A stretch of 25,906 bases of DNA, from assembly GCA_964013405.1 (NCBI GenBank), contig CAXGWI010000036.1:1-25906 (forward strand), written 5' to 3'. Positions 6,884-25,233 of this stretch are shown here, piece after piece. The notes beneath the pieces are model-generated. The model saw nothing but the letters and a program-made list of their open reading frames with translations. It was not told the origin of the DNA and made no database searches. The stretch comes from an uncultured Myxococcales bacterium. Its GTDB lineage: Bacteria > Myxococcota > UBA4151. The position numbers were made by a program, and so were the translations under genes. Within the stretch, counting starts at the first letter, position 1, and each line of letters opens with the position of its first letter.

Positions 6884-7444
6884 ATGGATGTGTATCGATC
6901 CCTTTTCGATGGTGCCGTCAAGGTGCTGCAACCTCGTCGTTTCGAAGACGAACGGGGCTATTTTATGGAATCTTGGCGAGAGGAGACCCTGGCGGAGGCC
7001 CTTGGTATGGATCTCGCCTTTGTTCAGGACAATGAGAGCCTGTCGGCCCGCGGTGTCCTGAGGGGTCTCCACTACCAATGGGATCCACCCCAAGGAAAGC
7101 TCGTGCGCTGTGCCCACGGTAAGGTCCTCGATGTTGCCGTGGATTTGCGCCGGTCGTCACCCACCCTTGGACAGGCAGAGGTCATCGAATTGAGCGCTGA
7201 CAACCGGCTCCAGATCTGGATTCCACCGGGCTTCGCTCACGGTTTCCTCAGCCTGACAGACGATGCCCTGGTGTTGTACAAATGTACGGCCCGCTGGTCA
7301 GCGGAAGGGGAGAGTGGGCTTTGGCCCCTCGATCCAGAACTCAACATCAACTGGCCCTGCGCTGCCGATGAGATCACCCTGTCGCCGAAGGACGCCGAGG
7401 CCAAAACGCTCGCTGACTATCTGGCGGATCCAGTCTTCGACTAG
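6884..7444 (+). CDS. rfbC: dTDP-4-dehydrorhamnose 3,5-epimerase
   Basis: Motifs FEDERGYFMES, FVQDNESLS, RGLHYQ, QGKLVRC, DVAVDLR, IPPGFAHGF and LYKCT; purine-rich SD upstream. Confidence 0.95.
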   Translation: MDVYRSLFDGAVKVLQPRRFEDERGYFMESWREETLAEALGMDLAFVQDNESLSARGVLRGLHYQWDPPQGKLVRCAHGKVLDVAVDLRRSSPTLGQAEVIELSADNRLQIWIPPGFAHGFLSLTDDALVLYKCTARWSAEGESGLWPLDPELNINWPCAADEITLSPKDAEAKTLADYLADPVFD

Positions 7445-9693
7445 TCGAGTCGAGGCCGGCAGCAGAACACCGCCATCCGAGCGTTGGTAAAGTCCCGACG
7501 CCGACCAAAGTTGTCGAGGCTGCCCTCGGCATAAAAACCATTGTCCCAGCCGCACCAGTTCTGATCCCCGATCATGAGCGTCTGCTGGTTATTGCTGTAG
7601 AGGAACTTACCGGCCGTTGAGGTTGGCTCGCCATTCTCGTGATTCATCGGAAAGCACGGGTTACCACAAAAGTTCTGGTTGCTCGCGCCGCGTAAATTGT
7701 CGGGCCAGGCATAGAGCCAACGCCCGGAACAGCGCTGAGCGACCGCCTCCCCCCAAGTCGATTCTGTTCCCCCCGGATCCTGACCTCGTGGATACCTCGC
7801 TTCCCATTCGGCGAGGCTACAGACGTGCCAACCCTCCGCACAGGCCTGATCGACCGTGTCGCGGCGGAACTCGCCGCCGCAGAGGGCAGCATCCCGACTC
7901 GCCGGCGTAAAGGCCGGGTGCTCTGCTTCCCGCTCTCGACAGCCATTGGGTGCTGGTTCGCTCTGGCAATCGGCTGCGCACAGGTCACCATCTTCCACAT
8001 TCCCATCATCGCAGACTTCATGACCCGGATCGCCAAACAGAAGCTCCTCTGCCTCACCCTCGACCATGCGGTAACGCCGAACCACTCCATCGCCACAGCG
8101 GGCGATCGTACAGTCATTGGTGCACTCATCGGCGTCCTCTTGGTTGCCGTCGTCACAGCCCTCATACCCTTCGTCGCCAGGTTCAAGGTCGCCATTTCGA
8201 GCGAAACCGTCGCCACAAACGGCCCGCTGACAGGCTGCGGTACAACGGTCGTTGGAGAGCCGGTCACCGTCGTCACAGGCTTCATAACCCGCCTCGCCAG
8301 GTGCGAGTTCAACCCGCTCCCCCTGTAGCCAGGCATAGCGGCGCACGACATCATCACCGCACACAGCTGTTTGGCATGCATTGGTGCAGGCATCCGCGTC
8401 TTCATCGTTGCCGTCATCACAGGTTTCTGCACCGACGGCGACGACGCCATCGCCACAGACGGCCTCTTCGCAGTTGTTCAGACAGGCATCCGCGGGGTCA
8501 TCGTTGCCGTCGTCACAATCCTCGTTGCCAAACCACTCAAAGCCATCGCCACAGCGGGCCGCTCGACAGCCCTCAACACAGGCATCCACATTGCTATCGT
8601 TCGCATCATCGCATTCTTCGTATCCGACTTCACCGATCCGTATGTTCGTGCGGAGGATCCCATCCCCGCAGCGGGCTTCTCGGCATTCGTTCGTACAGTC
8701 GTTACCGCCGTCTCGGTCACCATCATCGCAGGTTTCTTCCCCCACCCAGATGTGGCCGTCACCACAGCGAGCCACCATGCAGTCCGTCGTACAACCGTCG
8801 TCGTTGGAGTCGTTGCCATCGTCACAGCCCTCGTGTGCGGGGTCCTCAACGGCCACATCTGTGCGCCGCACCCCATCGCCACAGCGGGCCGGGCGGCACA
8901 CATTAGTACAAGCATCTCCTTCGTTGAGATTGCCATCATCACAACTCTCTACCCCCTCGCGGAGGTAACCATCGCCGCAACTGGCGGCCACGCAAGTGCT
9001 CAGGCACCCATCCGTATCCGAGTCGTTGCCATCATCGCAGACCTCACCGGCCTGCACTGCCCCATCGCCACATCGAGCATCCGCACAGTCGTTGCATGCG
9101 TCCGTTGGATCGTCGTTGCCATCGTCACATTCTTCCACCCCTGCTTGGACGAAGCGGTCACCACAACGGGCTTCGCGGCAGTTCTCCACACAGGCGTCGT
9201 CGTTGTCTTCGTTGCCATCGTCGCAGACTTCCGATGGAATGGTGCCGGGCTCCGTCTCGACCGTTCGCAGGATGCCATCGCCGCACCGAGCCAGCAGGCA
9301 AACGTTGGTACATGCATCGCCAGCTTCTTCGTTGCCGTCATCACAGGCCTCAAAGCCGAGCTCGCCCTCGGCCCGGTCGAGACGCTGGATCCCGTCGCCG
9401 CATCGGGCTTCAACGCAATTGGCTAAACAGCCATCCTGCTCATCTGAATTGCCATCATCACAGGCCTCGTAGCCATCATCACCGGGGCTCAGATCCTGCC
9501 GAGTGATCGCATCGCCACAACTGGCTGCCTTGCAATCGCTCAAACAGCCGTCGGTTGGCGAACTGTTGCCATCATCGCAGGCCTCGCCGGCATCCAGGAC
9601 ACCGTCACCACAGCGAGTCAGGTCGACTGGGTCATCACCGGGGCAGGCCGCCAGCAGTAGCCAAGGCAGGGCCAGCAAGAGACGATGGGCCAT
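7441..9693 (-). CDS. Lipoprotein with 15 Myxococcus Cys-rich (DUF4215-type) repeats and a C-terminal Cys-containing globular domain
   Basis: Lipobox LLAA-C17; 15 counted copies of CGDG..E.CDDGN....D.C...C; strong SD GGAGGT 5 nt before the ATG. Confidence 0.88.
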   Translation of the reverse strand: MAHRLLLALPWLLLAACPGDDPVDLTRCGDGVLDAGEACDDGNSSPTDGCLSDCKAASCGDAITRQDLSPGDDGYEACDDGNSDEQDGCLANCVEARCGDGIQRLDRAEGELGFEACDDGNEEAGDACTNVCLLARCGDGILRTVETEPGTIPSEVCDDGNEDNDDACVENCREARCGDRFVQAGVEECDDGNDDPTDACNDCADARCGDGAVQAGEVCDDGNDSDTDGCLSTCVAASCGDGYLREGVESCDDGNLNEGDACTNVCRPARCGDGVRRTDVAVEDPAHEGCDDGNDSNDDGCTTDCMVARCGDGHIWVGEETCDDGDRDGGNDCTNECREARCGDGILRTNIRIGEVGYEECDDANDSNVDACVEGCRAARCGDGFEWFGNEDCDDGNDDPADACLNNCEEAVCGDGVVAVGAETCDDGNDEDADACTNACQTAVCGDDVVRRYAWLQGERVELAPGEAGYEACDDGDRLSNDRCTAACQRAVCGDGFARNGDLEPGDEGYEGCDDGNQEDADECTNDCTIARCGDGVVRRYRMVEGEAEELLFGDPGHEVCDDGNVEDGDLCAADCQSEPAPNGCREREAEHPAFTPASRDAALCGGEFRRDTVDQACAEGWHVCSLAEWEARYPRGQDPGGTESTWGEAVAQRCSGRWLYAWPDNLRGASNQNFCGNPCFPMNHENGEPTSTAGKFLYSNNQQTLMIGDQNWCGWDNGFYAEGSLDNFGRRRDFTNARMAVFCCRPRLD
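7966..9612 (-). repeat. Coding tandem repeat: 15 Cys/Asp-rich units of 31-48 aa
   Basis: Counted in the translation. The DNA shows recurring gttgccatcatc/gtcgtcaca-like words on the + strand. Confidence 0.9.
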
Positions 9694-9732: not shown

Positions 9733-12078
9733 TCAGGCGAACAACAACTTCCGGCCCCGAAGTGCCATCAGAACGAGCAGTACCCAGGCCAGGCCGCCGG
9801 CATCGGAACCGGAGCAGCCACAACCCTCGGGGGTGGCTGCGCCCGACGGTACAGCGTCTGGCTCATCGGTGGTTTCGGGTACGCAGGAGCGGGCCAAATC
9901 GTCATCCCACTCCACGGCCACATTGAAGTCGCCGAGACGAGCCCCACCCGTCTTTGTCCCTAGACTCACATAAAGAGGACCGCCACAGGCCGTATCGAGG
10001 CCATCGACCTCTAAGAGGCCACCTTCCCCCTGAACCACAACGGGGTAAAGACGAGCGTCATCGTTGTAGGACACCCGTCCATCGTCGTAATTGAATTCGA
10101 TCGGCGCACCATCTCGAAGCACGGCGGTCAGTTCGGGGGCTTCCTGCTGTTGCCCCATGAAGTCACCGCCACCGGCCATCGAGAACCGCAACTGCACGCT
10201 GACGGTACCCGGCGGCATCATGATTCGGCCCTGGAAGAAAGTGGGTGCGTGCTCCCCTTCCCGAACGCCGACTTGTTGGGCGCCAGCTAAGTGGACTTCT
10301 TCGGGGCCTTGGGAGACCATTTCCGGCCGTTGCCCCTCGTGCTCCACCAGCTTCAACAAGTCCAACACCCGCTCACAGTCGATCAGGCCCGCTTGGGTCA
10401 TATGCTCGATGAAGGACTCCGCCCGCGCTACATCCAATTGCAGTTCCAACTCCGCGGCGATGGCGTCGGCAGCATCGGTGTAGCCGGCCATCTGGGTCGG
10501 AATCGCCGCCATGCCCATCACCACAGCGGTGTCGAAGAGGACCTGGTCATCGTCATCAAGACCGGAGCGAAAGGCCCATAGCTGACTCGCCAGAGGGATC
10601 CCATCGTGGTGGACTTCACCAATGAGATCATCAGGGCAGCGCTTTGGCACGCTATGGTCTCTGATGCCTTCGGCACCACCGACAAACTGTCCCATCTGGG
10701 GAGAGCCAGCCATCACCATGGACATATAGTCAGCGAAGCCCTCGTGCAGAGAACCAGGTGTCAGGTGCGTCCCCCATCGATCCTGATGAGCACCCGCAAG
10801 CCGCGAGGTCCGCGAGATCGCGGCGTGGGTGAGTTCGTGGTACAGCACGTCAGCATCGTAGACGAAGGGTCCCACCGTCCCATGGAACATGAGGACCGAG
10901 TCGAAATCCCGCTCCATGGGAAACGGCGTCTGCTCTGAACTCTCGCCGATCGCGGGGATGAACACCGCGTTATCCATGGGCATGAAACAGCTGATCTCTT
11001 GCGACAGCATGTTGATGCAGCCGGCTGCACTCAAAGCCTGAATCCCCTCCTGGCCACCGAAGGGAATGGAAGGCACCATGAAGTTGACCGTGATGGCGAA
11101 ACCGGCCCCGCCACCGGAGAGGCTGAATCCCTCCAAGCCATGTTGCCGAAGAAATTCGAGAAACAGGTGGGCGTGATAGTAGCCCTGGGTCTCCGCGAAT
11201 GAATCCCGGTGCGGCGCATCAGCCAGGGTCACATCCGCTGGCAGCGTCCGAGTCATCAAACCAGGCTGCGTCGGCATCCAGTTGGTGACGCGGGCATTGT
11301 ATAGAAAGTCTCCCGCCTCGTCTGGTCGGGCTTCGGGGCGCTCGTCACAAAAGGGCATCGTGACGTTAAACTGACCGAAGGGCATCGTGACCTTGATGGG
11401 CCCGTTGCCCGGCTCGCAGCCCTCTTCGATACAGCAGGCGCGAATCTGAAATTCTTCGCTCTGCAACACCCGGCCCGCGGGTGCAGGCTCTAGATCGACT
11501 GTGATCACATCGGTGAGATCGCGACCGACGCCCGGGCTGCGTTCAAACACATGGGCCTGGGCTTTTTTGACGAGGTTACGGCGGGCCAGGATCTCCCCTG
11601 TGACACCGTCCACTCGAAACTCTAAGAGCTCGTAGGGCATGGGTGAACTCAAGTGAATGACCCAGGTCGGTGCCAGCCCCTTTGCGACCACACGCCAGGC
11701 CTGACGGGCCGACCAGTTCCCCGGCTGCATTGGATCGAGGTGAGGAAACTGTGGACCGCGTTCGATCGTTGTCCTGAGGGCCTCGTCCCGATCCACGCGA
11801 AAGGCTGCGATCCCTTGGACCCGATGCAAAGGCTTCACCTCTTTTTGGTAGACCAGACCTCGGTCATGATCCCAGCGACGAATCAGCTCATGATCAAGGA
11901 CCATCAGGCCTTGGTAGACCCGGCGAAACCGATAGACTGCGCCGTTTGTTACCTGCGTTTCTCGCTCAAGACGGTAGCCGACCGGGGGCTGGTCGATTTG
12001 GGTCACATCCATGCCAGGCTCGGCACTCGTGGCACCACCGACTGTGAATAGGCTCGCAAAAGTGATCGTTAGCAGCAC
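9733..12078 (-). CDS. Secreted zinc metallopeptidase (M36/M4-like) with propeptide and MYXO-CTERM-like sorting tail
   Basis: Signal peptide; FTP/PepSY-like propeptide (YRFRRVYQGLMV, FRVDGVTGEIL); HELTH; GSLHEGFADY third ligand; GEVHHDG; C-terminal GCGCSGS-hydrophobic-RGRK. SD GGAGG before the GTG. Confidence 0.85.
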   Translation of the reverse strand: MLLTITFASLFTVGGATSAEPGMDVTQIDQPPVGYRLERETQVTNGAVYRFRRVYQGLMVLDHELIRRWDHDRGLVYQKEVKPLHRVQGIAAFRVDRDEALRTTIERGPQFPHLDPMQPGNWSARQAWRVVAKGLAPTWVIHLSSPMPYELLEFRVDGVTGEILARRNLVKKAQAHVFERSPGVGRDLTDVITVDLEPAPAGRVLQSEEFQIRACCIEEGCEPGNGPIKVTMPFGQFNVTMPFCDERPEARPDEAGDFLYNARVTNWMPTQPGLMTRTLPADVTLADAPHRDSFAETQGYYHAHLFLEFLRQHGLEGFSLSGGGAGFAITVNFMVPSIPFGGQEGIQALSAAGCINMLSQEISCFMPMDNAVFIPAIGESSEQTPFPMERDFDSVLMFHGTVGPFVYDADVLYHELTHAAISRTSRLAGAHQDRWGTHLTPGSLHEGFADYMSMVMAGSPQMGQFVGGAEGIRDHSVPKRCPDDLIGEVHHDGIPLASQLWAFRSGLDDDDQVLFDTAVVMGMAAIPTQMAGYTDAADAIAAELELQLDVARAESFIEHMTQAGLIDCERVLDLLKLVEHEGQRPEMVSQGPEEVHLAGAQQVGVREGEHAPTFFQGRIMMPPGTVSVQLRFSMAGGGDFMGQQQEAPELTAVLRDGAPIEFNYDDGRVSYNDDARLYPVVVQGEGGLLEVDGLDTACGGPLYVSLGTKTGGARLGDFNVAVEWDDDLARSCVPETTDEPDAVPSGAATPEGCGCSGSDAGGLAWVLLVLMALRGRKLLFA

Positions 12079-12246
12079 AGATCCTCCGGAATGCTTATGC
12101 GACTCGTTATACCTTACCCCTACAGAAACCTACTGCCGAGTAGACTCCGTCATTCCTCGGATGCGCCCAGTGGGCTACCCGAAGGTTTTTCTGCTAAGGG
12201 CTGCCCGCCGAGGTGCCGTTGGGTGCCTCAAGGAGCCATTTTCACC

Positions 12247-12930
12247 ATGCGATTCACCATCCTTGCCTTGTTGCTTCTGACACCGGCCCTTGCGAGCGCC
12301 AGTGCACCAGCGGACGCCCTTCAGTTCACGAAGGAACAATTTTCAACCTATTGCGCCTTCAAAAACTTCATGGCGGAAGACGGCGAGTGGAAGAAGTTCA
12401 AGACGCCCGAACGAGCAAAGAAGAAGTTCGCCAAGAACTATCGAATGAAGGAGGCTGCACTCGACGCCTTGATCACGGCCGGTGAGCGTGTGGGTTCTTG
12501 CGCCGACTTTAAGGCCCGCTGGGAGGCTGACCTCAAGGCGGCCTTGAAGGCGATTCCTAAGCGGGGTGATCTGGTGCGAGGCTTCAAGGAGCCTATTTTC
12601 GCCCGGCGGATCAACTGGGTGGAAGTGAACGTCGACAACAGCGACCACGTGATCGTCTGGGTCAGTTGGCTGTGGTTTAACGATCGATTTGTGGAGGAGG
12701 AGAGCGCCATCGTCGGCGCGATCGTCCACGAAGTGCTGCCGGCCGCGGGGACCCTGCTGGTCTTCGCTCGCAAGAAGTCGGAGAAAGAAAAGAACATGTT
12801 TGAAGCGAAAATTTCCGGCTCCCGGCTGGGGACGATCAAGCTCAAGAAGGTGGGTGATTACGCCAAGAAACGCTATTGGCGCTTCTTCGAAGGTATCAAA
12901 TTCGACGAGAGCATCTCACGCACGAACTAA
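12247..12930 (+). CDS. Secreted Lys-rich hypothetical protein
   Basis: SD AAGGAG upstream of ATG 12247; signal peptide MRFTILALLLLTPALASA; coding-like codon usage; two Cys residues. Confidence 0.75.
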   Translation: MRFTILALLLLTPALASASAPADALQFTKEQFSTYCAFKNFMAEDGEWKKFKTPERAKKKFAKNYRMKEAALDALITAGERVGSCADFKARWEADLKAALKAIPKRGDLVRGFKEPIFARRINWVEVNVDNSDHVIVWVSWLWFNDRFVEEESAIVGAIVHEVLPAAGTLLVFARKKSEKEKNMFEAKISGSRLGTIKLKKVGDYAKKRYWRFFEGIKFDESISRTN

Positions 12931-14577: not shown

Positions 14578-17508
14578 GTGCCCCTCCTCCTCGCCATCTG
14601 CTTCTTCGCCTCCGGCGCAACAGGCCTCGTTTTTGAGGTGATCTGGTCCAGACTTCTTGGCCAAGTCTTCGGCGCCACAACCCCGGCGGTGGCGACCACG
14701 TTGTCCTGCTTTATGGGTGGGCTCGCCATCGGGGCCCACCTGATCGGCAAGGTGATGCACCGCATCAAAAGGCCAGCGCTCTGGTATGCCGGCTTTGAAG
14801 CGTGCATCGGCCTCTACGCATTGGCGATCCCGACCCTGTTGGATCTGGCCATCACCGTCCAGCGAACGGCCTGGCCCGCCGATGACAGCCGCTTCATCGT
14901 CTACTCCCTCGTACGCCTCGCTGTGGTGGCAGCGATTCTGCTGCCGCCCTCGGCCTTTATGGGCGCAACACTTCCTCTCTTGGCTGAAGCGATCGCCCGC
15001 TCGGGCTGGGGTCCGGGCAAAACCGTCGGCATGCTCTACGGGCTCAACACCCTCGGCGCCGTTGTGGGCGCCGGCGCTGTCGGCTTCTTCCTCTTGCCCT
15101 GGCTCGGTCTCAATCTGACCAACCAACTCGCCGCTGGAACCGACATCGTTCTGGCCGCACTCCTCGTCGCGCTTCTACCAAAGTTTGGCCAGGATTCGTC
15201 GGCCTCCGAAGCACCACCGCTTGAAGTGGAGGCACCGGTCCCGCAAGAAGACGAGCCATCGGGCATCCTCGGCGGTCGGGCCCGCTTACTCATTGCGGTC
15301 GTCGCCGTCTCCGGCGGAATCTCCATGGCCTTACAGGTCCTTTGGACCCGCGGCCTCTCCATGGTCCTGGGCGCATCCACCTACGCATTTACCACCATCT
15401 TGGTCGTGTTCCTCACCGGCCTTGCAGTGGGCTCTGCTGTGGCAAGTTTGACGGCGGATCGAGACCCTGCGCCGACCCGGCGGCTGGGTATCCTTCTCGT
15501 CCTCGCCGGCATCTTTGGGTTCATGGGGACGCGGGCGATCGATCAAATGCCCCATTGGCTCCAAAGTTTCGTCGTGGACCCAGAACTCACGACCCTCGGC
15601 TTAAACACGGTCCATCTCAGTTTCTGCAGTCTCACCATGTTGCCCGCGACCCTTCTGCTCGGTGCGGTCTTTCCCTATGTCGTGCGCGGCCTCCGGCCCG
15701 ACGCAGGCCTGGGCGCGACCGTCGGCGAGGCCTACGCCGCCAACACCATTGGGGCCATCGTCGGCTCCGCCGGGGCCGGCTTTGTTGTGATTCCCCTTGT
15801 CGGCATCTACACGGGCCTGTGCCTGGGTCACACCTTGCACATACTCCTCGGCGTCCTATTGATCGTCCGGGAACAAGCCTCCGGGACCACGCGGGAATCT
15901 CGCCTCTCCCACGGCTTTCTCGCCCTGGCTTTGGCCGGTCTGATCTGGCTGGTGCCGCCCTGGGACGTCTCTCGCTGGAGCCTGGGGATGTTCCGGGTCT
16001 CCGTCGCCCGTGTTTTCGGCGATGAGGCTGCGCAAATCTTCGGCCGTCTACTGTATCACCGCGATGGCCTCGCAACCACGGTCACCGTGGAACGCAGTGA
16101 CGATGTCACCCTCTTGAAAGTGAACGGGAAAGTGGACGCGTCAAGTCACGGCGATATGCCAACCCAGGTTCTCAGTGGCCTCCTCCCCCTGGTCCTTCAT
16201 GGTCAAGCAGAGCAGGTGGCTATCATCGGCTGGGGCAGCGGGGTCACGGCCGGCGCAACCCTGTCGATGCCTGTCAAACGGGTGAAGATGATCGAGATTG
16301 AAGAAGCCGTGGTTGAAGCGGGTCGCTTCTTTGCTGATGTGAATCGCTCCCCAGAAACCGATGCGCGCATGCAAATCATCTACGACGACGGACGTAACGT
16401 CATGCACAGCAGCGATGAAACCTTCGACGTCATTATTAGTGAGCCGAGTAATCCCTGGATGTCCGGCGCTGCTGCTCTCTTCACCGAGGAGTTCTTTCAG
16501 GTCTTAAAAAGTCGGCTCAAACCCGGTGGTGTTAGCCTCCAGTGGATTCAACTCTATGAACTGAGCCCAAAGGCGATCAAAGCCCTGCTCCGAACCTACG
16601 CCTCAGTCTTCGAGGAAATTCTCGTCTTTTCGGCCCATCCGACCAGCAATGATATCTTTCTGGTCGGCTCCTCCAAGGAACTTAAACTCAACCGTGACCA
16701 TCTACTGACGGCCATGTCGTCGCCGGATCGGATGACCTGGTTTCAAGCGGCCAAACTCCCGGAACCCGTGGACTTATTACCTCGACTGATCTTCGGGCGG
16801 GACGAGATCATGGCCTGGGTTGGGGATGGCCCACTCAACACCGATGACAACGGATTGGTTGAGTTCCTGGGCCCGGTCGACCTCCTTCATTACGCCGACA
16901 GCAGCGCTGAACTCCCCTTTCTCGACATCCTCGATGGACGCCGCCAGGCGATGGTCGAAAAGTACACCCGAGGATGGGCGTCCGGTGGCCGATCCATGGC
17001 CTGGGGAATGGCCCGGGCCGGGCGCTACGAAGATGCACGATCGATGGTTGCAGGCGGGGAAGACCCAGATCTGATTTGGGTCCTCGACCGTATGGAGGAG
17101 TCGGCCAAGGTGTCGATCTTGGATGAAGGGCTGAGCGAAACAGATCCCGACTATCGCCGGGTCGCCGAAGCCATGCTCTACGAGGGGCCGGAAGCCGCTG
17201 AGCAATTGCTTATGGACGAGGAGGGCTTGGCAAACCGCTCCCCCGGCCACCAACTGCTCGCCGGCTACATCGAGTTTCATATGGAAGACCTCTCCGCGGC
17301 CATCACACTGCTGCAGCGGGCGGCCCGCGACCAAGCCTATCGAGAAGGGATGCCAGCGGTGGACTACTACCTGGCCCGGGCGTTGGTGGAATGGGGCGAA
17401 CCGGCGGAAGGCTTAGAAGTCATGCTTCGCCTTGGACGGCGCCTGCAGCGCGCAGGCCAGCGGGATCAGGGCAACTGGATGCGAGGGTCCTCGCCCCGCG
17501 GCCGGTAG
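14578..17508 (+). CDS. Fused multi-pass membrane / spermidine-synthase-like SAM-dependent transferase with C-terminal TPR-like helices
   Basis: FFASGATGLVFEVIWSR, MGATLP and LYGLNTLGA motifs duplicated in two membrane halves; IIGWGSGVT; IEIEEAV; DDGRN; FDVIISEPSNPW; NTDDN; TPR-like tail (YYLARAL). Confidence 0.88.
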   Translation: MPLLLAICFFASGATGLVFEVIWSRLLGQVFGATTPAVATTLSCFMGGLAIGAHLIGKVMHRIKRPALWYAGFEACIGLYALAIPTLLDLAITVQRTAWPADDSRFIVYSLVRLAVVAAILLPPSAFMGATLPLLAEAIARSGWGPGKTVGMLYGLNTLGAVVGAGAVGFFLLPWLGLNLTNQLAAGTDIVLAALLVALLPKFGQDSSASEAPPLEVEAPVPQEDEPSGILGGRARLLIAVVAVSGGISMALQVLWTRGLSMVLGASTYAFTTILVVFLTGLAVGSAVASLTADRDPAPTRRLGILLVLAGIFGFMGTRAIDQMPHWLQSFVVDPELTTLGLNTVHLSFCSLTMLPATLLLGAVFPYVVRGLRPDAGLGATVGEAYAANTIGAIVGSAGAGFVVIPLVGIYTGLCLGHTLHILLGVLLIVREQASGTTRESRLSHGFLALALAGLIWLVPPWDVSRWSLGMFRVSVARVFGDEAAQIFGRLLYHRDGLATTVTVERSDDVTLLKVNGKVDASSHGDMPTQVLSGLLPLVLHGQAEQVAIIGWGSGVTAGATLSMPVKRVKMIEIEEAVVEAGRFFADVNRSPETDARMQIIYDDGRNVMHSSDETFDVIISEPSNPWMSGAAALFTEEFFQVLKSRLKPGGVSLQWIQLYELSPKAIKALLRTYASVFEEILVFSAHPTSNDIFLVGSSKELKLNRDHLLTAMSSPDRMTWFQAAKLPEPVDLLPRLIFGRDEIMAWVGDGPLNTDDNGLVEFLGPVDLLHYADSSAELPFLDILDGRRQAMVEKYTRGWASGGRSMAWGMARAGRYEDARSMVAGGEDPDLIWVLDRMEESAKVSILDEGLSETDPDYRRVAEAMLYEGPEAAEQLLMDEEGLANRSPGHQLLAGYIEFHMEDLSAAITLLQRAARDQAYREGMPAVDYYLARALVEWGEPAEGLEVMLRLGRRLQRAGQRDQGNWMRGSSPRGR

Positions 17509-17759
17509 AGAATCCAAACTCGCCCGATCACGGCGACCGCCTCACTAGCCGTCCGTTGCGCGAGGGTCCCAATCGCTTCCTTTCGGTCGATGCCGGTCTC
17601 TTTGCCCACCTTCACCTTGATCAACTCGTGGGCCTCAAGAGCCACATCGGTCGCTTGACACACGGCGTCTGTGAGCCCGTTGGCACCCACCTGTACAGAT
17701 GGTGAGAGCCCGTGGGCCAGCCCCCGCAGGTAGCGGCGTTGTTTGGGTAAAAGACTCAT
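17466..17759 (-). CDS. yhbY: Ribosome-assembly RNA-binding protein YhbY (CRM domain)
   Basis: Motifs KQRRYLRGLAHGL, VQVGANGLT, ALEAHELIKVKV and IGRVWILYR; 97 aa. Confidence 0.92.
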   Translation of the reverse strand: MSLLPKQRRYLRGLAHGLSPSVQVGANGLTDAVCQATDVALEAHELIKVKVGKETGIDRKEAIGTLAQRTASEAVAVIGRVWILYRPRGEDPRIQLP

Positions 17760-19273
17760 CCGTCGGCAAGCCGGCGGGCTTGGCCGAGAAAGACTTTCGC
17801 GAGTTTCTCGTTATCGGCTCGCGCATAAATACGAGAGAGCAGGAGGGGTGCCACAAAGTCCTCTTGGTGTTCTTGGCTATAGGTCTGAATCTCGGCCAAA
17901 GCTCGATTCATCGCGCCGCCCGGATCGTGACTTCCCGGATCCAAAGTCTCTAGGTAGCGCTCGATGATCACCTGCCGCTGCTCAGAGAATCCACTGTCCC
18001 GTAGTTTATCTCGTGCACTGAGAACGTGGTGCTTCCGCATGAGTTCAAGGATCTCATGGAGAATGGCCATCGCATCCTGGTCGGTCGCCGCCGAGTCATC
18101 TTCCGGCGGCTGCTCCTGGGCTGGTTCCTCAGCCTCCCAGATGGGATCGGGCAAGCCCTCTTCGACGCTCGGCTCCTCGACTTCATCCTGCTCTCGCAGG
18201 GCCGGCCTGTCTTGGGTTCCAGGCATGGCGTCGCGAACCCCGGTGGACTGGGTCCAGCGATCCCGCCCCGTGCCTGCCCTCGGTCGGGCATCAGGGCTGG
18301 GCAGGGGCTCGATCACCCGAGTTGTCGGCGGCTTGATCCGCTGACCGGGCATACGAGGTGGGGCGGACAGAGGCGGCGCAGAGACCGGCGGGAAGGGTGA
18401 TGGCGCGGCGACCGGTTCGGCCGGCATACTCGCCGCCAGGGGTGGCGGCGGTGCGGATGCTGGGCTTGGGGGCCTGGCGGGCGCCGAGGCACCGGGAGGC
18501 CGAATCCGAGGCATCCCGCTCAGCGTCCCCATTCCGATCGGTGCCGAGGTCTGGACCGCAGGACTGGGGGCAGGGGCCGATTCGGATACGAGGAGACCAG
18601 CCCCCCACATGACGACAAAGGCTGCCATACCCGCCGGGTCCCCCTCGGGAGCCGTCAAGCCGCCAATACCCGGCCCGGCCGCATGCAGTTGCTGGGCCAA
18701 GCCTTCCGGCAAGCCCAAATCCTCCAATGATGGCTCCATCAAATCAGTCCGACGGAAAGGAGGACCGATGGTCTGAAGGACCTCGTCGAGTTCGGAGCCC
18801 GTCAGGGCAGCCAAGGCATGGAAAGGCAATTCAAGGCACGAGAAACCCAAATCCTGGCCGGCATCACTCACCTCGTCGCTCACCTGCAACGACTCACCAC
18901 TTTGCAGGACGGCGCAGAAACGCTCCAGAAGGTGAGACGCCCGGGCATCGCGGGAGGCATCGACGCCCAACAAGTGGTCTACCGAAGTCCAAGGTCCCGC
19001 ATCGCCAGCCTCGGTCCCGGCCCACTCGAGCAGCCGAGCCTCTCGATCGCTGATCAACCCCTGATCTACCAGTTGAGGAATCAAGCTCTCTTGGCTGGCA
19101 CCACAGGCAAACCCCACCACTCGTCCCGACCGAATGTGTAGCGTGCTGGCCCCGATTCTGAGGCAGCCCGACTTGCCGGGGATGGCAAACGCAAAATAAT
19201 CGGATAAGAGTTTGTTCACACACTCCTCGATTGGCCTTCGTGCCCGGGGCGTGCGCGACTTTAACACTCCCAT
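17756..19273 (-). CDS. Hypothetical protein: DUF4388-like N-terminal domain, Pro-rich linker, helical/TPR-like C-terminus
   Basis: SGCLRI..LHIRSGRVV..LVDQGLIS resembles the myxobacterial DUF4388 pattern. ATGA overlap with yhbY. Start is uncertain: ATG 19273 (GGAG SD) or GTG 19219. Confidence 0.6.
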   Translation of the reverse strand: MGVLKSRTPRARRPIEECVNKLLSDYFAFAIPGKSGCLRIGASTLHIRSGRVVGFACGASQESLIPQLVDQGLISDREARLLEWAGTEAGDAGPWTSVDHLLGVDASRDARASHLLERFCAVLQSGESLQVSDEVSDAGQDLGFSCLELPFHALAALTGSELDEVLQTIGPPFRRTDLMEPSLEDLGLPEGLAQQLHAAGPGIGGLTAPEGDPAGMAAFVVMWGAGLLVSESAPAPSPAVQTSAPIGMGTLSGMPRIRPPGASAPARPPSPASAPPPPLAASMPAEPVAAPSPFPPVSAPPLSAPPRMPGQRIKPPTTRVIEPLPSPDARPRAGTGRDRWTQSTGVRDAMPGTQDRPALREQDEVEEPSVEEGLPDPIWEAEEPAQEQPPEDDSAATDQDAMAILHEILELMRKHHVLSARDKLRDSGFSEQRQVIIERYLETLDPGSHDPGGAMNRALAEIQTYSQEHQEDFVAPLLLSRIYARADNEKLAKVFLGQARRLADG

Positions 19274-19292
19274 GGCGGCTCCGCTAATATTA
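19261..19292 (+). promoter_or_regulatory. Putative promoter TTAACA-N18-TAATAT with palindromic -10 (TAATATTA) between divergent genes
   Basis: TTAACA at 19261-19266; TAATATTA at 19285-19292, an AT-rich spot in GC-rich DNA. Confidence 0.4.
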
Positions 19293-19310
19293 CGATGGAG
19301 GGAAATCAAC

Positions 19311-20666
19311 GTGGCATTTCTGCTTGCCCAGGGGGCAACCGATATCGGACAGCGCCGCGAGCACAACGAAGACCGCATCTTTTGCGACCCGAATATGGGG
19401 CTCTTCGTCGTCTGCGACGGTATGGGTGGTCACGCAGCGGGAGAGGTTGCTGCGGAAATGGTGGTGGAGTCGATCGTCCATCATCTTGAGGAATGCCTCA
19501 GCGAGCTTCCTGATCACCTCGACGAAGAAGATGCTGCAAACCAGCTTGGAAATGCCCTGGAGCAGGGCATCATGGCCGGCAATGCAGCGGTCCACGCCCG
19601 AGGCCAGGCCGAAGGGCATCAAGGTGGCATTGGCACCACCTGTACCGCCTTGGTCGTTCACGGCCGACGAGCATGTCTGGGTCATGTGGGGGACTCACGC
19701 TGTTATCTGGTGCGGGATGAGAAGCTCTATCAATTGAGCCAAGACCACAGTTGGGTTGCGGAAATGGTTCGGACCGGCCGCATGACGGTGGAGGAAGCTG
19801 AGCGCAGCCCCCAGCGAAACCTTCTCGTCCGTAGTGTCGGCCCTCAACCCGTCGTCAAAGTGGACAGGCTGTCGATCGACCTGGTGGCCCATGACACCCT
19901 ACTGCTTTGTTCCGATGGCCTTCACAGTTACTTTTCGTCGCCTAGCGAGTTGGTGGAACTCCTGGAGCGGGGCGATGTCTCCCGACTCCCCGAAGAACTC
20001 ATCGGACTGGGCAACAGCCGTGGGGGCCATGACAACCTAAGTGCCGTTTTGGTACGCATGCCTTCAGCTGATGACCTCCCCCCCAGCGACCGAGACCCTC
20101 GCGTCGAGTTGGCCTTTCTTGGCAGCCTGGACCTCTTCTCAGAAATGGGGTTGCCCGAACTCGTTCGGGTGCGATCGATCTGTAGTCACGTGACTTTCGA
20201 GGCCGACGAGCCCATCTGCCGGGAGGGTGCGGTGGGCGACAGCATGTATGTGCTCCTGAGTGGTTCGGCGAATGTGCTCTCGAACGGCCAGGTCCTGACC
20301 GATCTATCGCCCGGCGATCATGTCGGCGAAATGAGTCTCGTTGACGCACGCCCCCGATCGGCCACGGTCATCAGTCATGGAGAAAGCCGCTGGCTACGTA
20401 TTGCGAGGGGCGAGATCTTCCGAGTGGTCCGGCAAGAACCAGAGTTAGCGGTCAAGCTGCTGTGGAACTTCGTGCGCGTGCTGTCGTCCCGATTGCGGGA
20501 CACGAATGCGGCCCTGCAAACTGGCCGGGGCTTACGACCCCTGGCCGGCGAGAGTCTATCCAGTGTGGTGGGCGAGGCTTCAGACAGCTTCGAGGTCGAG
20601 TTCAGCATCGACGAGCAGCACGCCGGTTTCGAAGTCGAGATTGATGAGGATCCAGAGGACTATTGA
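19311..20666 (+). CDS. PP2C/PPM Ser/Thr phosphatase fused to a cyclic-nucleotide-binding domain, with acidic tail
   Basis: PP2C motifs RREHNED, VCDGMGGH, GTT, HVGDSR, DHS, CSDGL and GGHDN; cNMP cassette GEMSLVDARPRSATV. Start GTG 19311 after SD GGAGGG. Confidence 0.92.
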   Translation: MAFLLAQGATDIGQRREHNEDRIFCDPNMGLFVVCDGMGGHAAGEVAAEMVVESIVHHLEECLSELPDHLDEEDAANQLGNALEQGIMAGNAAVHARGQAEGHQGGIGTTCTALVVHGRRACLGHVGDSRCYLVRDEKLYQLSQDHSWVAEMVRTGRMTVEEAERSPQRNLLVRSVGPQPVVKVDRLSIDLVAHDTLLLCSDGLHSYFSSPSELVELLERGDVSRLPEELIGLGNSRGGHDNLSAVLVRMPSADDLPPSDRDPRVELAFLGSLDLFSEMGLPELVRVRSICSHVTFEADEPICREGAVGDSMYVLLSGSANVLSNGQVLTDLSPGDHVGEMSLVDARPRSATVISHGESRWLRIARGEIFRVVRQEPELAVKLLWNFVRVLSSRLRDTNAALQTGRGLRPLAGESLSSVVGEASDSFEVEFSIDEQHAGFEVEIDEDPEDY

Positions 20667-21589
20667 ACGCGCACTGGGAGGACGATGAGGAAGCGACCCG
20701 TGTCGCACCTGCGGACGTTGACCTGCTCGCCAGGCACGACGAAGGGCCGATCTCCATCGTCCAGATTTACGGCCCTGAGATCGGGCGCCTCATCGATCTC
20801 GACACCGACGGCATCGTTCTCGGCCGAGGCATCGACTGCGATATCCTGATCAACAGCGACACCGTCAGTCGGCAGCATGCCGAGCTCCGATGGGTAGGGA
20901 GCACCATCACGGTTCAAGATCGGGACAGCTTGAACGGCACCTACGTGGACGAACGCCGGGTGCGTGGACCCACACCACTTGAGGGCGGCCAGAGCCTCCG
21001 CCTGGGTGGCGTCATCTTTAAGGTGTTGCGTGGCGCTGATCTCGAGCGCCGCTACCATGAAGAAATTTACCGGATGGCCATCATCGATGGTCTCACAGCC
21101 ATCCACAACAAGCGTTACTTTGTGGACTTTCTTGACCGGGAGCATGGGCGAGCCATTCGACATGATCGGCCCCTCTCCATGATTCTTTTCGATGTGGACA
21201 GCTTCAAGGCGCTGAACGACAAATTCGGTCATATCAACGGTGACCGTGTCCTCGAGCAAATGGCCTCCCGGGTGCGAGGCTTTGTTCGAAGGGACGAATG
21301 CTTCGCTCGCTATGGAGGCGAAGAGTTCGCTCTGATTTTGCCCGAGTCACCGGAAGAGGGGGCCGTCGCCCTTGCCGAGAAGATCCGAGCCGCTGTGGAG
21401 GAGTCACCATTCCGGCTTGAGGATGATCAAGATGTGCAGGTGACCGTAAGCCTCGGTGTGGCGACACTGCGGGAGAACGAGACGGTCCAGGGCCTTGTAT
21501 CCCGGACCGATGACGCCCTGTATGATGCTAAGAACGCCGGCAGAAATTGTACCCGAACGTGGGGCAACGCTGGTGATGCTCCCCCTTGA
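20663..21589 (+). CDS. FHA-domain diguanylate cyclase (FHA-GGDEF)
   Basis: FHA motifs LGR, SRQHA and SLNGT; GGDEF motifs DGLT, DVDSFKALNDKFGH..GD, RYGGEEF and ALYDAKNAGRN. TTG start overlaps the upstream stop (TTGA). Confidence 0.93.
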   Translation: MNAHWEDDEEATRVAPADVDLLARHDEGPISIVQIYGPEIGRLIDLDTDGIVLGRGIDCDILINSDTVSRQHAELRWVGSTITVQDRDSLNGTYVDERRVRGPTPLEGGQSLRLGGVIFKVLRGADLERRYHEEIYRMAIIDGLTAIHNKRYFVDFLDREHGRAIRHDRPLSMILFDVDSFKALNDKFGHINGDRVLEQMASRVRGFVRRDECFARYGGEEFALILPESPEEGAVALAEKIRAAVEESPFRLEDDQDVQVTVSLGVATLRENETVQGLVSRTDDALYDAKNAGRNCTRTWGNAGDAPP

Positions 21590-21666
21590 GCCGGTATAGG
21601 GCATCCGGCGGAGCATCGCTCTCGTTTCAAGGGCGATAAACTCAGGGACCAAAAAAGGGGGGTCGT

Positions 21667-24600
21667 ATGCCTCGCATCCCAGGTGGCAGAAATAACGGCG
21701 GCAGCAACGAGACGCCGACCGTGACTGAGCGGGAGCGCACTCGCTCTCGAACCGGTGACGACCGTGACAAGGCCAAGTACGATAACGGCCGAGTTCGTTA
21801 CGACTGGGATGTCTACACGGACCCACAGGGGGACCATCGGGGTAAAGTCGGCCTGGGCCACCGGGACGAGAAGAACGACATCTACGGCTCCATCGAGTTC
21901 AACGAACGAACGGATCGCCTCAAAGGCACCGTCGAAGCCGAACGCGAGATCAATGAAAACCTAGATGTGCGTGGTGCACTCGGCCGCGACAACGACGGCT
22001 ATCATAGCGGCCGTCTCGGCGGCCGGGCCAGCGGCGAAGATGGCTGGGTCGACCTGCAGATGGATTTCAACGAAAAGACCGATCGTCTCGATGGACGGCT
22101 GAAGTCCCGTTACAAGGTCTCAGACGATACCACGGCCCGGGTCGAGTACACGGCGCGCAATAACAAGGCCGACAGTTGGGAAGTGGGTGCCAAGCACCGG
22201 ACTGGCCCCGGCGACTATGTGGATGGCGAAGTCGGCAGGGGTTCGACCATGGGTGGCTACGGTGCTGGCCGCTGGGTCCGCAAGGATGACGGTGAGCTGC
22301 TGGATGACCACTGGGTCCGTTACAGCGAGAAGAAGGGCCTCGAGATCAAATCGAAGGCCCACCGAGAAGGCGAAAACTGGGAGGCAGACCACTCGCTGAC
22401 CCGCAACAAGGGTGTGACCAAGCACAAGTTCAGCGCCGAGCACGAAGGGGAAGACGCCAAGCATACAATCCGCACGAACTTCGAGCACGACGCCAAAAAC
22501 CGCACCGCCGGGGACGTCACGGTCGGCCGGCAAGGCGAAGATTACGACGCGGCTTTGCGCCTGCGTAAAGACAAGAGCGGACTCAAGAAGGCCCGCCTCA
22601 CTGGCTCGAAAGACATCTCGGACGACACAACCCTCGCTGGACGAATCGACATCGACGACAAGGGACGGTGGAAAGCCGGTGGTACGGTCGACCATGAAAT
22701 TAACGACGACCTCAGGGTCCGGGAAGGGATCGCTGTCGACCACAAAGGCGTGGTCTCCCACGAGCACGGTGCTCAGATTGATTTCGCTGATGACAAGGGC
22801 GTGGTCGACGCCAGTATGACCCACAGCAGTGACGGCGCCCACCACGAGCGCGTCACGGTCGGCTACAATACAGAATCCGGGGGTCGCCACAGCGGCTCGG
22901 TTGAACACCGAGAGACAGCCACAGGTCGAACCACCAACAGGGCCGAGTATCGCTACAGTAATCCGGAGGGTCGACGGGTCCGGGCCGACATCGGCAAAAC
23001 CGAAGAGAACCGCTTCCTTGGGGTTGGTGTCTCCAATCGGGTCGATGCCCGCACCACCGAGCGGTTCGATGTGGACTGGAGCGACGATCGAGGGCTGGAG
23101 GGAAGCGGTGGCATCCGCCGGGATATCAACCATGACACCCATATCGAGGGCCGACTGAGTGGCTCCCTGAGGGATCGAGACATTCGGGCGGACGTCAGCG
23201 TTGGGCACGAATTCGACGAAGATGTGAGCATGGATGCGGGCCTGAGCTTCGCCCGACGAGATGGCAAGATCGCCGGTAACGTCAGTGTCACCGATGCGAT
23301 GGGCGACGATGATCTTGGCGCCAGCCTGCGATTGGGTGCTGGACGAACCGACCGGCACGTCCACGCCGAAGCCGGTGGTGACGTCAGCTTCGGTAACGTC
23401 TTCGGCGCCAGCACCGGCAATATCGGTGGCGATGTAGGAATCAAGGTCACCAAACGGGTGGCTGTGAAGACTGGCCGCGGGGAAGCAGGCAAGCTGCGGG
23501 AAGAGATGCTTGCCGAGCAACCCGAGGGCGCCGGCTATGTTCGCTACGGTATCAAGGGCAAAGCCAGTGGCAAGGCAGGGATCTCGTTACCCCTGGGCCC
23601 TGGCTACGTCGAAACTGGCTTGAAGGCCGGCAAGACCTACGCTGTCGAATTCACCCGCCTTGACGAGAATCCCGACCTAGGCCGCCACCCCACTCGTGCC
23701 GAACTGGCCATTCCAGGCACTGCCGACGAACTGTTGGCCTTGAAGGCCGGCGAGGCTGTCGCCATTTCCGGTGAGACGACCCACGCCTACATGGCCGGTG
23801 GTGGCTTTGGTGCAGCCATGGGTGCCGTCGGCATCGGCGAAGCGGGCATCAAAGCGGGGGCGGACGCCACCTATGCGATCACCGGAAAGACCCGGACTGA
23901 AGTCCTCCGTGGCGGTGATAGTTCAGCCCGCATGACGCTCCGTGCCAGCGATATGCATACCAAAGACGCAGGCCTTAAGGTGAAGGTGGGGATCACCCCG
24001 AACCTGCCCGATCTCGGCGCCGACGTAGGTCCCGTCGGGGACGTGGCGACAGGCATTGCGAAGGGTGTCCTTAGCCAATGGATGAGCGTCGGGGTTCGCA
24101 AGTCGACCGAGAAGGGCGAAGGGGACAACCGCCTTATGGATGTCCGCCTAGACCTGTCCGATGATGAGGCGAAAACCGCCTACGACGCGGCCATGAAGGG
24201 TGACTGGAGCGCGATCAAAGCAATGCACGATGCCGGTCACCCCGCCGTGAAACTCGAAAAGACGATTCTCACGGACATTCACGAAAAAGCTACACCGCTC
24301 GTCGTCCATGGCCTGGGCATGAGCTACGTTTCAGAAAACCGTGAGGTGAAAAAAGACTCACAAGTCGAAGTTGGGGACCGCCAGTTCAATGTCGAAAGCG
24401 ACAAGGATAGTAACACCCGGGCAAAGGATGGCTGGTTCCTCGACACCAAAGTCGAAGTCTCTGACTACAGCCGCACGGTCCGCCCCGAAGAAGGCAGCGA
24501 CTTGGGTCGAGTGAAAGGGGAGGAGCGCTACCTCTCATGGAGCCGCTCCCGAACCGATAGTTTCAGCAGTAAAGACGAAGTTCTCGAGCAGTTAGGTCTC

Positions 24601-25233
24601 GCTGGTTTCGTCATTGGTGCCGATGGTGACAAGACCCTCTCGAAGTACGAGAAGAAGATCGCCAAGATCGATAACCACCGGAAACTCTGGATTGGTCCAC
24701 GCAATGAGCTGCGCAAGACCAGTGTGCGCACGGAGATCACGTTCTCAGATGCCGGTCTCGATCGCCTTGAGGGGAAAACGGAAGGTGATATCTGGTCGGC
24801 CTTTGCCACGGCGAAGAATGCCCTCAACGACGCGGCAGACCGGCCCGCATGGACCGATCCCGATCGCCGGGCAAGCCTTGCCAACGGGACCGCGAGTTTC
24901 CGGGTCAACTCCGGCGCGATCATCACCAACGACGCCGACGCCTATGACCGGGCATCGTATCGCCAGGCGAAGCGCTTCGTGACTGGACTCACCGCCGCTG
25001 CGAAACTCCCAGAAGAAGACCGCAACGACGCGATCCGCGAGACCCTTGCCACGTTCAAAGGGGACCCGGCGACCATCGGTGCCATGGTTGAGTTGCTCGG
25101 TCGGGATGTGGTCCGCATGGACCTTAAGGTGGACAGCAACGCGGGTAAGAAGAAGACCCAATACGACTTCAAGCTGACCACCAAGGGTGACGAGTACGAC
25201 GTAACGAAGACAACCTTCGGCGCCAATCTCTAA
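21667..25233 (+). CDS. Large hypothetical protein (1188 aa): about 28-aa beta-hairpin repeat region plus unknown C-terminal alpha/beta domain
   Basis: Long uninterrupted ORF with strong GC3 bias and SD-like AAGGGGGG; no Cys and no Sec signal seen. Confidence 0.85.
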   Translation: MPRIPGGRNNGGSNETPTVTERERTRSRTGDDRDKAKYDNGRVRYDWDVYTDPQGDHRGKVGLGHRDEKNDIYGSIEFNERTDRLKGTVEAEREINENLDVRGALGRDNDGYHSGRLGGRASGEDGWVDLQMDFNEKTDRLDGRLKSRYKVSDDTTARVEYTARNNKADSWEVGAKHRTGPGDYVDGEVGRGSTMGGYGAGRWVRKDDGELLDDHWVRYSEKKGLEIKSKAHREGENWEADHSLTRNKGVTKHKFSAEHEGEDAKHTIRTNFEHDAKNRTAGDVTVGRQGEDYDAALRLRKDKSGLKKARLTGSKDISDDTTLAGRIDIDDKGRWKAGGTVDHEINDDLRVREGIAVDHKGVVSHEHGAQIDFADDKGVVDASMTHSSDGAHHERVTVGYNTESGGRHSGSVEHRETATGRTTNRAEYRYSNPEGRRVRADIGKTEENRFLGVGVSNRVDARTTERFDVDWSDDRGLEGSGGIRRDINHDTHIEGRLSGSLRDRDIRADVSVGHEFDEDVSMDAGLSFARRDGKIAGNVSVTDAMGDDDLGASLRLGAGRTDRHVHAEAGGDVSFGNVFGASTGNIGGDVGIKVTKRVAVKTGRGEAGKLREEMLAEQPEGAGYVRYGIKGKASGKAGISLPLGPGYVETGLKAGKTYAVEFTRLDENPDLGRHPTRAELAIPGTADELLALKAGEAVAISGETTHAYMAGGGFGAAMGAVGIGEAGIKAGADATYAITGKTRTEVLRGGDSSARMTLRASDMHTKDAGLKVKVGITPNLPDLGADVGPVGDVATGIAKGVLSQWMSVGVRKSTEKGEGDNRLMDVRLDLSDDEAKTAYDAAMKGDWSAIKAMHDAGHPAVKLEKTILTDIHEKATPLVVHGLGMSYVSENREVKKDSQVEVGDRQFNVESDKDSNTRAKDGWFLDTKVEVSDYSRTVRPEEGSDLGRVKGEERYLSWSRSRTDSFSSKDEVLEQLGLAGFVIGADGDKTLSKYEKKIAKIDNHRKLWIGPRNELRKTSVRTEITFSDAGLDRLEGKTEGDIWSAFATAKNALNDAADRPAWTDPDRRASLANGTASFRVNSGAIITNDADAYDRASYRQAKRFVTGLTAAAKLPEEDRNDAIRETLATFKGDPATIGAMVELLGRDVVRMDLKVDSNAGKKKTQYDFKLTTKGDEYDVTKTTFGANL

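Follow-up and report, generated by a model that had tools for sequence, protein, structure and literature searches.

What does a long run of amphipathic β-hairpins, modeled with the curvature of a membrane barrel wall, do in a bacterial protein that carries no recognized export signal? The question is raised by P0001, a 1,188-aa protein encoded in a stretch of 25,906 nucleotides (the window; contig CAXGWI010000036.1, GenBank assembly GCA_964013405.1) from an uncultured Myxococcales bacterium. Bacterial β-barrel membrane proteins are thought to require a signal peptide and the β-barrel assembly machinery (BAM). The N-terminal half of P0001 is a hairpin array that defines a rare protein family of marine Myxococcota, and the C-terminal half is a separate module, better conserved and far more widespread than the array, that the initial annotation of the window did not mention. 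For the array, the predicted fold is an amphipathic barrel wall like that of porins; P0001 is tentatively proposed to be a Sec-independently exported protein that may sit in or perforate a membrane.

P0001 is the product of a complete open reading frame (ORF) at positions 21667 to 25233 of the forward strand (1,188 codons plus stop); unless marked otherwise, all features given below lie on this strand. The purine-rich AAAAAAGGGGGG (21651 to 21662), read from the sequence and ending 4 nt before the ATG, is likely the ribosome-binding site of the gene. The protein has a mass of 129 kDa, a pI of 5.95, and a grand average of hydropathy (GRAVY) of -1.09, is rich in Gly (12.3%), Asp (10.4%), Ala (9.1%), and Arg (8.8%), and contains no Cys among its 1,188 residues. 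Its N-terminal tail (21667 to 21726; residues 1 to 20) opens with a conserved MPRI, is polar and Arg/Thr/Gly rich, lacks a hydrophobic core, and is modeled as disordered. The best 12-residue Kyte-Doolittle (KD) mean in the first 70 aa is only -1.0, and the best 19-residue hydropathy window of the whole chain reaches just 1.06, in the hairpin of residues 697 to 748. These low maxima indicate that P0001 has neither a signal peptide nor a transmembrane helix, as judged by hydropathy windows and not by a dedicated signal-peptide predictor. In addition, an in-frame stop codon lies 9 codons 5′ of the ATG; the start therefore cannot be earlier, and no upstream signal peptide can be hidden there. The composition, the N-terminal hydropathy with the upstream stop, and the final residues (...TFGANL) thus bear out the initial description of a protein without Cys, a Sec signal, or a terminal Phe.

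The array (21727 to 23469; residues 21 to 601), with approximately 20 β-hairpins of 28 aa in tandem, was delimited from AlphaFold secondary structure, self-alignment, and dyad faces, and the narrower bounds first proposed for it (21769 to 23460; residues 35 to 598) were essentially correct. When the chain is cut at AlphaFold strand boundaries, the 18 best-defined consecutive hairpin units (21793 to 23319; residues 43 to 551) are 26 to 32 aa long (mean, 28.3), each consisting of a strand, a mixed or basic turn, a second strand, and an acidic turn. The eight motifs on which the repeat was originally recognized were all found where they had been reported: FNERTDRL (residue 78; nucleotide 21898) and FNEKTDRL (residue 134; nucleotide 22066) are 56 aa apart, DISDDT, EINDDL, and DFADDK (residues 316, 344, and 372) follow each other at 28 aa, and RVDART, DINHDT, and EFDEDV (residues 458, 486, and 515) do so at 28 to 29 aa. 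BLOSUM autocorrelation over residues 35 to 600 gave z scores of 3.1 (lag 28) and 2.8 to 3.2 (lags 55 to 56), and nothing comparable was found at these lags in the C-terminal half. Self-alignment of a profile built from 9 to 10 family members over the same residues gave off-diagonal scores of 122.7 (offset, 56 aa) and 115.6 (offset, approximately 142 aa), versus 40.6 for the reversed profile, a control that preserves composition and strand periodicity, and ≤20.2 for eight column shuffles. The 28-aa periodicity of the array exceeds chance. Weaker self-hits (39 to 47) lie near the reversed control and are thus not distinguishable from pattern alone. A long antisense ORF that overlaps the array (22120 to 23520, reverse strand) is presumed to result from the high G+C content.

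The full-length AlphaFold2 model was built from a six-sequence alignment and has a mean pLDDT of 57 and a pTM of 0.34 over the whole chain, with residues 21 to approximately 480 at a pLDDT of 65 to 86. Across residues 21 to 601 it contains 40 to 41 consecutive strands of approximately 10 aa joined by turns of approximately 4 aa on both rims. The meander of roughly 40 antiparallel strands expected at first inspection is accordingly present, and the model shows neither disorder nor a β-helix in its place. In exhaustive structural alignment of the array, all 50 matches listed were transmembrane β-barrels (Z, 9.2 to 15.4). One segment (22300 to 23220; residues 212 to 518; 22 strands) covers whole 18-, 19-, and 22-strand barrels at 3.6 to 4.7 Å, namely, OpdQ (Z, 15.4; 247 aa; 4.7 Å), Tom40 (Z, 14.9; 231 aa; 3.9 Å), FyuA and FptA (Z, 14.9; 297 to 299 aa; 3.8 to 4.2 Å), BtuB and YncD (Z, 14.6), and VDAC1 (Z, 14.2). 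Since this segment fits around a whole 22-strand barrel at approximately 4 Å, it should circle once with approximately 20 to 22 strands, and we infer that the 40 strands would go around about twice, either as two tandem barrels or as a spiral, and would not close into a single ring of 40. Longer alignments to the array fit badly (LptD, root mean square deviation [RMSD] of 14 to 19 Å), and a Foldseek search with the full model returned LptD, FimD, VDAC, and ApoB100 as top matches with TM scores of ≤0.22, a likeness confined to the local meander.

Solved barrels have 8 to 36 strands, the largest solved single-chain barrel having 36, and protein families of 38 or 40 strands, as well as multibarrel chains that arose by hairpin amplification, have been predicted (Solan et al., PNAS 2021, PMC8346858). 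The strand number alone is therefore not unprecedented: the count of approximately 40, which the initial annotation considered greater than in most known barrels, stands in the model, but barrels of 38 to 40 strands had already been predicted. In that study, the giant and multibarrel families were found by homology to known outer membrane barrels and mostly in Proteobacteria and Bacteroidetes, whereas the array family shows no homology of this kind, lacks a signal peptide, and is joined to a 580-aa unrelated module, although a relative might be listed in the supplements of the study.

The two faces of the sheet differ sharply in chemistry. With the strand boundaries of the model, the apolar face of the array consists of 50% VILMFWY and 23% Ala/Gly, with 11% DEKR and 18 His residues, and the opposite face is 50% DEKR. 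Apolar/polar alternation, also described initially, is retained in 39 of 39 strands (mean over eight homologues). The two rims carry opposite charges: turns after odd strands have a net charge of +11 in P0001 (family mean, +3.5), and turns after even strands, which are of the DxDD type, have a net charge of -29 (family mean, -12.2). Six outer membrane barrels of the same genome (three TonB-dependent receptors and three Omp85 barrels) served as controls for a measure based on dyad windows. The KD hydropathy of the apolar face was 1.51 in the array versus 1.56 to 1.93 in the controls, and its DEKR fraction was 0.06 versus 0.04 to 0.06. In contrast, the DEKR fraction of the polar face was 0.60 versus 0.33 to 0.41, and the overall fraction was 0.36 versus 0.16 to 0.23. 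The suspicion that the protein is too polar for a normal outer membrane protein was thus not sustained, as the apolar face matches that of the controls and the array is therefore not too polar for a membrane; what is unusual in the array is its highly charged second face and its scarcity of aromatics.

The conserved C-terminal module (23482 to 25230; residues 606 to 1188), recognized from alignments and AlphaFold, is modeled more confidently (pLDDT, 83.5; pTM, 0.78), from an alignment of 18 sequences including distant relatives. Its 583 residues are 51 to 52% identical to the same three relatives with which the array shares 33 to 37% identity. The model comprises a long-strand sheet (23533 to 24555; residues 623 to 963) of 11 strands of 12 to 26 aa, interrupted by helices at residues 784 to 805 and 833 to 855, followed by a mostly helical subdomain (24571 to 25098; residues 969 to 1144) and two final strands, which coincide with a conserved C terminus (25111 to 25230; residues 1149 to 1188) ending in ...VFGA(N/D)L. 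The sheet includes a long Gly/Ala-rich hairpin (23755 to 23910; residues 697 to 748) with a pLDDT of 64 at its tip. Several strands of the sheet are amphipathic, and strands 8 to 11 are polar on both faces. Foldseek searches with the module gave no convincing match in the PDB (best E, 1e-3; TM, 0.16) and none at E ≤0.001 among viral models. In exhaustive alignment, all 50 matches listed were membrane barrels (Z, 8.1 to 12.5), including HasR (Z, 12.5; 279 aa; 5.5 Å), VDAC1 (Z, 10.5; 191 aa; 4.2 Å), and OccD2 (Z, 8.1; 188 aa; 3.4 Å), with the module covering approximately 11 to 13 strands of 18- to 22-strand barrels. No specific family emerges for the module from these fold searches. As modeled, the module is probably an open, curved, barrel-wall-like sheet with the helical part probably cradled within.

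The array was found in 11 of 401 sampled Myxococcota genomes, within three taxonomic families (four of five, five of six, and one of one genomes), and the module was found in 43 of the 401, a count that includes one unpublished genome (G195). Array and module are joined in a single open frame in 10 of the 11 genomes, and both lie at contig ends in the eleventh. When 5.8 billion clusters were searched by indexed words, five proteins were retrieved with the full-length sequence, eight with the C-terminal region, and three with a profile of the module (A6). A profile hidden Markov model (HMM) search with the array among 1.84 billion representatives returned 34 proteins at E ≤0.001, 23 of them at E ≤1e-10, mostly short fragments; of four matches inspected, the two strong ones were family members and the two weakest (P0042 and P0044) were unrelated low-complexity repeat proteins. 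Named records are from metagenome-assembled genomes (MAGs) of uncultured marine Myxococcota or Myxococcales (six loci) and from one MAG labeled Bdellovibrionales (two loci). A metagenome scan yielded five loci, and the sequencing runs that contain parts of the gene are marine. The family has no cultured members, and its alignments are shallow. Copy number varies, with a single array-plus-module gene in the taxonomic family of the window and several copies or fragments in genomes of another family (f24; G060, G095, G100, and G121), with up to five array matches per genome.

Elsewhere, the module is preceded by different N-terminal regions, and the open frames span 545 to 2,666 aa. At several loci (L053, L054, L061, and others among L049 to L064), frames of 1,092 to 2,666 aa contain subelements of the module (profile positions of approximately 5 to 170 and 206 to 295) in tandem. 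Three of 16 large module-bearing paralogues have a LysM domain, which binds peptidoglycan, at the N terminus and no signal, which points to an extracytoplasmic function reached by a non-Sec route; no Pfam domain other than LysM was found in the 16. In a protein-atlas feature search, the best score for the whole of P0001 was 0.77. The module alone scored 0.93 (182 to 187 shared features) with unnamed clusters of approximately 720 to 750 aa, mostly from Acidobacteriota, a possible sign that the module is not confined to Myxococcota.

Searches against known families were largely empty. P0001 matched no Pfam family at E ≤1, including RTX or calcium-binding repeats and the YD (RHS) repeat. NCBIfam, PHROGs, and PADLOC provided no family for it, the latter two being blank also for a 783-aa relative. 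Family profiles of the array and module retrieved nothing relevant from PDB sequences. The Pfam, NCBIfam, and PDB sequence searches thus uphold the original view that the protein has no confident match to a characterized family. Matches to β-lactamases in NCBIfam and PDB sequences (E, 0.17 and 0.28) were dismissed as chance. No phage link was seen in the PHROGs scan or the Foldseek search of viral models. The Gly/Ala-rich, weakly amphipathic hairpin of residues 697 to 748, set in an all-β module that otherwise has the look of a soluble one, presumably resembles the glycine-rich stems of β-pore-forming toxins such as aerolysin, hemolysin, MACPF/CDC, and gasdermin, but no toxin family was matched by the sequence of P0001, and no such toxin was among the 50 fold matches listed in either PDB search of the module. 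No description of the array-plus-module family was found in the literature searched, subscription journals not being covered.

The closest likeness is to outer membrane barrels, represented by the 18-strand OccD/OpdQ porins and the 22-strand TonB-dependent receptors, with which the array shares a meander of next-neighbor antiparallel hairpins, the hydrophobicity of the apolar face, and, as in BAM substrates, amphipathic dyad strands with a lipid-compatible face. Unlike these barrels, the array protein has no signal peptide (a BAM-type cleavable Sec signal being absent by hydropathy and the upstream stop), no long extracellular loops, no C-terminal aromatic residue, and few aromatics, and the array has a lumen face that would be 60% charged, approximately twice as many strands, a variable number of hairpins, and no sequence family match. 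New features of this protein are the missing signal, the lack of sequence homology to known barrels, a clean repeat of 28 aa, the distribution of charge, and the fusion to an undescribed module.

P0001 is tentatively regarded as a putative membrane-seated or membrane-perforating protein exported without Sec. Export would follow a route that needs no N-terminal signal, and the LysM domains of the paralogues support a function of P0001-type proteins outside the cytoplasm. The apolar face of the array would be turned toward lipid, and the opposite face, 60% of it charged, would surround a lumen filled with water. The basic rim would face lipid head groups and the acidic one water or divalent cations, and the two rims could thereby set the orientation in the membrane. 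The functional core would be the C-terminal module, which contains the Gly/Ala-rich hairpin; the array would be a lineage-specific extension of this core.

Several observations weigh against a membrane-embedded barrel. The membrane location is derived from predicted fold and sequence, and barrel closure from superpositions rather than from model coordinates; the array ends inside the chain. AlphaFold may roll any amphipathic meander into a barrel, and the full-length model was made from six sequences. The number of hairpins varies, P0033 (953 aa) having approximately 380 residues before the module and P0016 being 1,236 aa in total, and such variation is easier to reconcile with an open repeat array than with a single closed barrel. 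The apolar face contains 21% strongly polar residues, including the 18 His, and aromatics (FWY) make up 0.06 of the array versus 0.08 to 0.14 of the six outer membrane barrels. BAM substrates usually end in an aromatic residue, and P0001 ends in Leu. Strands 8 to 11 of the module are polar on both faces; the module is therefore no conventional membrane barrel as modeled. Furthermore, no secretion genes or conserved partners were found beside the gene, at two more distant loci, or at 16 distant homologues.

The same polarity and variability could belong to a soluble β architecture of the cytoplasm or periplasm, such as a two-layer ribbon, a cage, or a scaffold, which is the main and a serious alternative, only slightly less probable than the membrane proposal. 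Its apolar faces would pack onto each other, onto the C-terminal module, or onto a bound hydrophobic cargo, and its charged face and acidic rim would be exposed to solvent or would bind ions or polymers. In its favor are the lack of any recognized export signal, the very high overall charge (36% DEKR in the array) with a GRAVY of -1.09, a His-rich apolar face, a C-terminal sheet partly polar on both faces, and a hairpin number that differs among relatives. The neighboring genes encode cytoplasmic signaling proteins (FHA-GGDEF, PP2C with a cyclic nucleotide monophosphate [cNMP]-binding domain, and Ser/Thr kinase), and amphipathic β-sheet entries of ApoB100 are among the Foldseek matches. However, the modeled curvature is that of wide open barrels and not of a sandwich, a 22-strand barrel offers no protein core in which the apolar face could be buried, its hydrophobicity equals that of genuine membrane barrels, and the LysM domains of the paralogues suggest an extracytoplasmic role of the superfamily. 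Another candidate is a surface or extracellular structural protein, resembling an S-layer, adhesin, or matrix protein, that is exported by means of a type 1-like C-terminal signal and folds outside the cell with the aid of divalent cations at its acidic rim. A large, acidic, Cys-free, Gly/Asp-rich protein with no N-terminal signal is the typical profile of a type 1 substrate, and P0001 conforms to it (Gly, 12.3%; Asp, 10.4%); its conserved C terminus, the strongly acidic character of one rim of turns, and its marine origin are in keeping with such a protein. Nevertheless, this is unlikely: no RTX or calcium-binding repeat family was matched (Pfam, E ≤1), the pI is 5.95 and not approximately 4, and no ABC exporter, membrane fusion protein (MFP), or TolC genes are adjacent in the window or at related loci, although linkage is not a requirement for them. 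A single ABC exporter is encoded in the window (277 to 2106), beside lpxB and 19.5 kb from the P0001 gene.

An unbroken β meander with one apolar face is also what a lipid-carrying groove of the LptA, TamB, AsmA, or repeating-β-groove type would present, and in the Foldseek search with the full-length model, LptD entries rank first (E, 1e-7). The ApoB100 β-belt and the LptA/TamB grooves share with the array long runs of short amphipathic strands, but TM scores do not exceed 0.22 at RMSDs of >20 Å, P0001 has neither an anchor nor a signal, and barrel curvature is modeled. For LptD itself, Foldseek gave TM scores of 0.15 to 0.22 at RMSDs of >20 Å, and exhaustive alignment gave Z values of 9.2 to 11.0 at 14 to 19 Å, behind 41 other barrels. 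The Pfam matches to LptD (PF04453; E, 0.14) and TamB (PF04357; E, 0.15), each in one of 13 members, are far below the cutoff, and no signal anchor segment is present; a groove is thus a very unlikely explanation. Membership in the mitochondrial porin superfamily, for which the initial annotation had named VDAC and Tom40 as comparisons, is least probable of all and largely refuted. P0001 shares with these porins the lack of a cleavable signal, a polar composition, short turns at each rim, and a strand length of approximately 10 aa, and it aligns with Tom40 and VDAC1 at Z values of 14.2 to 14.9, yet the fold search scores of bacterial porins and TonB-dependent receptors are as high or higher. 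At the level of sequence, one of 13 members (P0007) matches Porin_3 (27.4 bits; E, 2.8e-6), below the gathering cutoff of 28.4 bits; the Porin_3 model (PF01459) has no match on the gene in any of five family genomes, and the family profile retrieves no VDAC or Tom40 chain from PDB sequences at E ≤10. Furthermore, VDAC and Tom40 have 19 strands and an N-terminal helix, whereas the P0001 model has 40 to 41 strands and a disordered tail.

A bolder form of the membrane proposal would be a single signal-less chain that makes a giant barrel of approximately 40 strands, or tandem barrels, and inserts itself into the membrane of its own or a foreign cell, with the module as a new membrane attack or docking domain. 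This is improbable; if true, it would provide marine Myxococcota with a monomeric β-barrel pore built from 28-aa hairpins, and the module would be common to approximately one-tenth of the phylum. A porin-like chain of approximately 40 strands with no signal would represent a new way of delivering barrels, a new soluble use of the barrel wall, or an example of hairpin amplification. The module is a confidently modeled domain with no database description and, given its presence in 43 of 401 genomes, sometimes with LysM, merits a family definition of its own.

Selection and transcription were assessed for the whole ORF. In comparison with a 79%-identical orthologue, pN was 0.13 for the ORF, 0.14 for the array, and 0.12 for the module, with pS saturated at 0.75, which indicates strong purifying selection on both parts. 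Eight contigs (151 to 233 nt) assembled from marine metatranscriptomes (three libraries, three studies) map inside the ORF; as RNA libraries can contain DNA, they are compatible with transcription and no more. None of the contigs mapped to the flanking genes, but the runs were picked by words from the P0001 ORF and are uninformative on relative expression.

The gene is preceded by an FHA-GGDEF gene (20663 to 21589), which ends 78 nt upstream of the ORF, and by a gene for a PP2C phosphatase with a cNMP-binding domain (19212 to 20666); both are syntenic solely within the taxonomic family of the window. Genes for a Ser/Thr kinase and a spermine-synthase-like protein lie farther upstream. This upstream gene order is retained in three relatives of the same family but not at two more distant loci or around 16 distant homologues, so that synteny may merely reflect close kinship. 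The spermine-synthase-like protein (14578 to 17508; 976 aa) has its spermine/spermidine-synthase domain only in midchain (residues 536 to 681) and adjoins the Ser/Thr kinase in three related genomes.

Elsewhere in the window, a 750-aa protein with five DUF4215 repeats (7441 to 9693, reverse strand) neighbors a 781-aa protein with no Pfam family (9733 to 12078, reverse strand). Three further proteins matched no Pfam family at E ≤0.001 (17756 to 19378, reverse strand, 540 aa; 12091 to 12930, forward strand, 279 aa; and 4447 to 5340, reverse strand, 297 aa). The PF04453 model finds no LptD in the genome to which the window belongs (G000; 94% complete), perhaps because the protein is divergent or its gene is missing from the assembly. 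Genes for LpxB, a PAP2 phosphatase, and an MsbA-like ABC exporter are present in the window, and lipid A is apparently made (compare the genes at 2780 to 4437).

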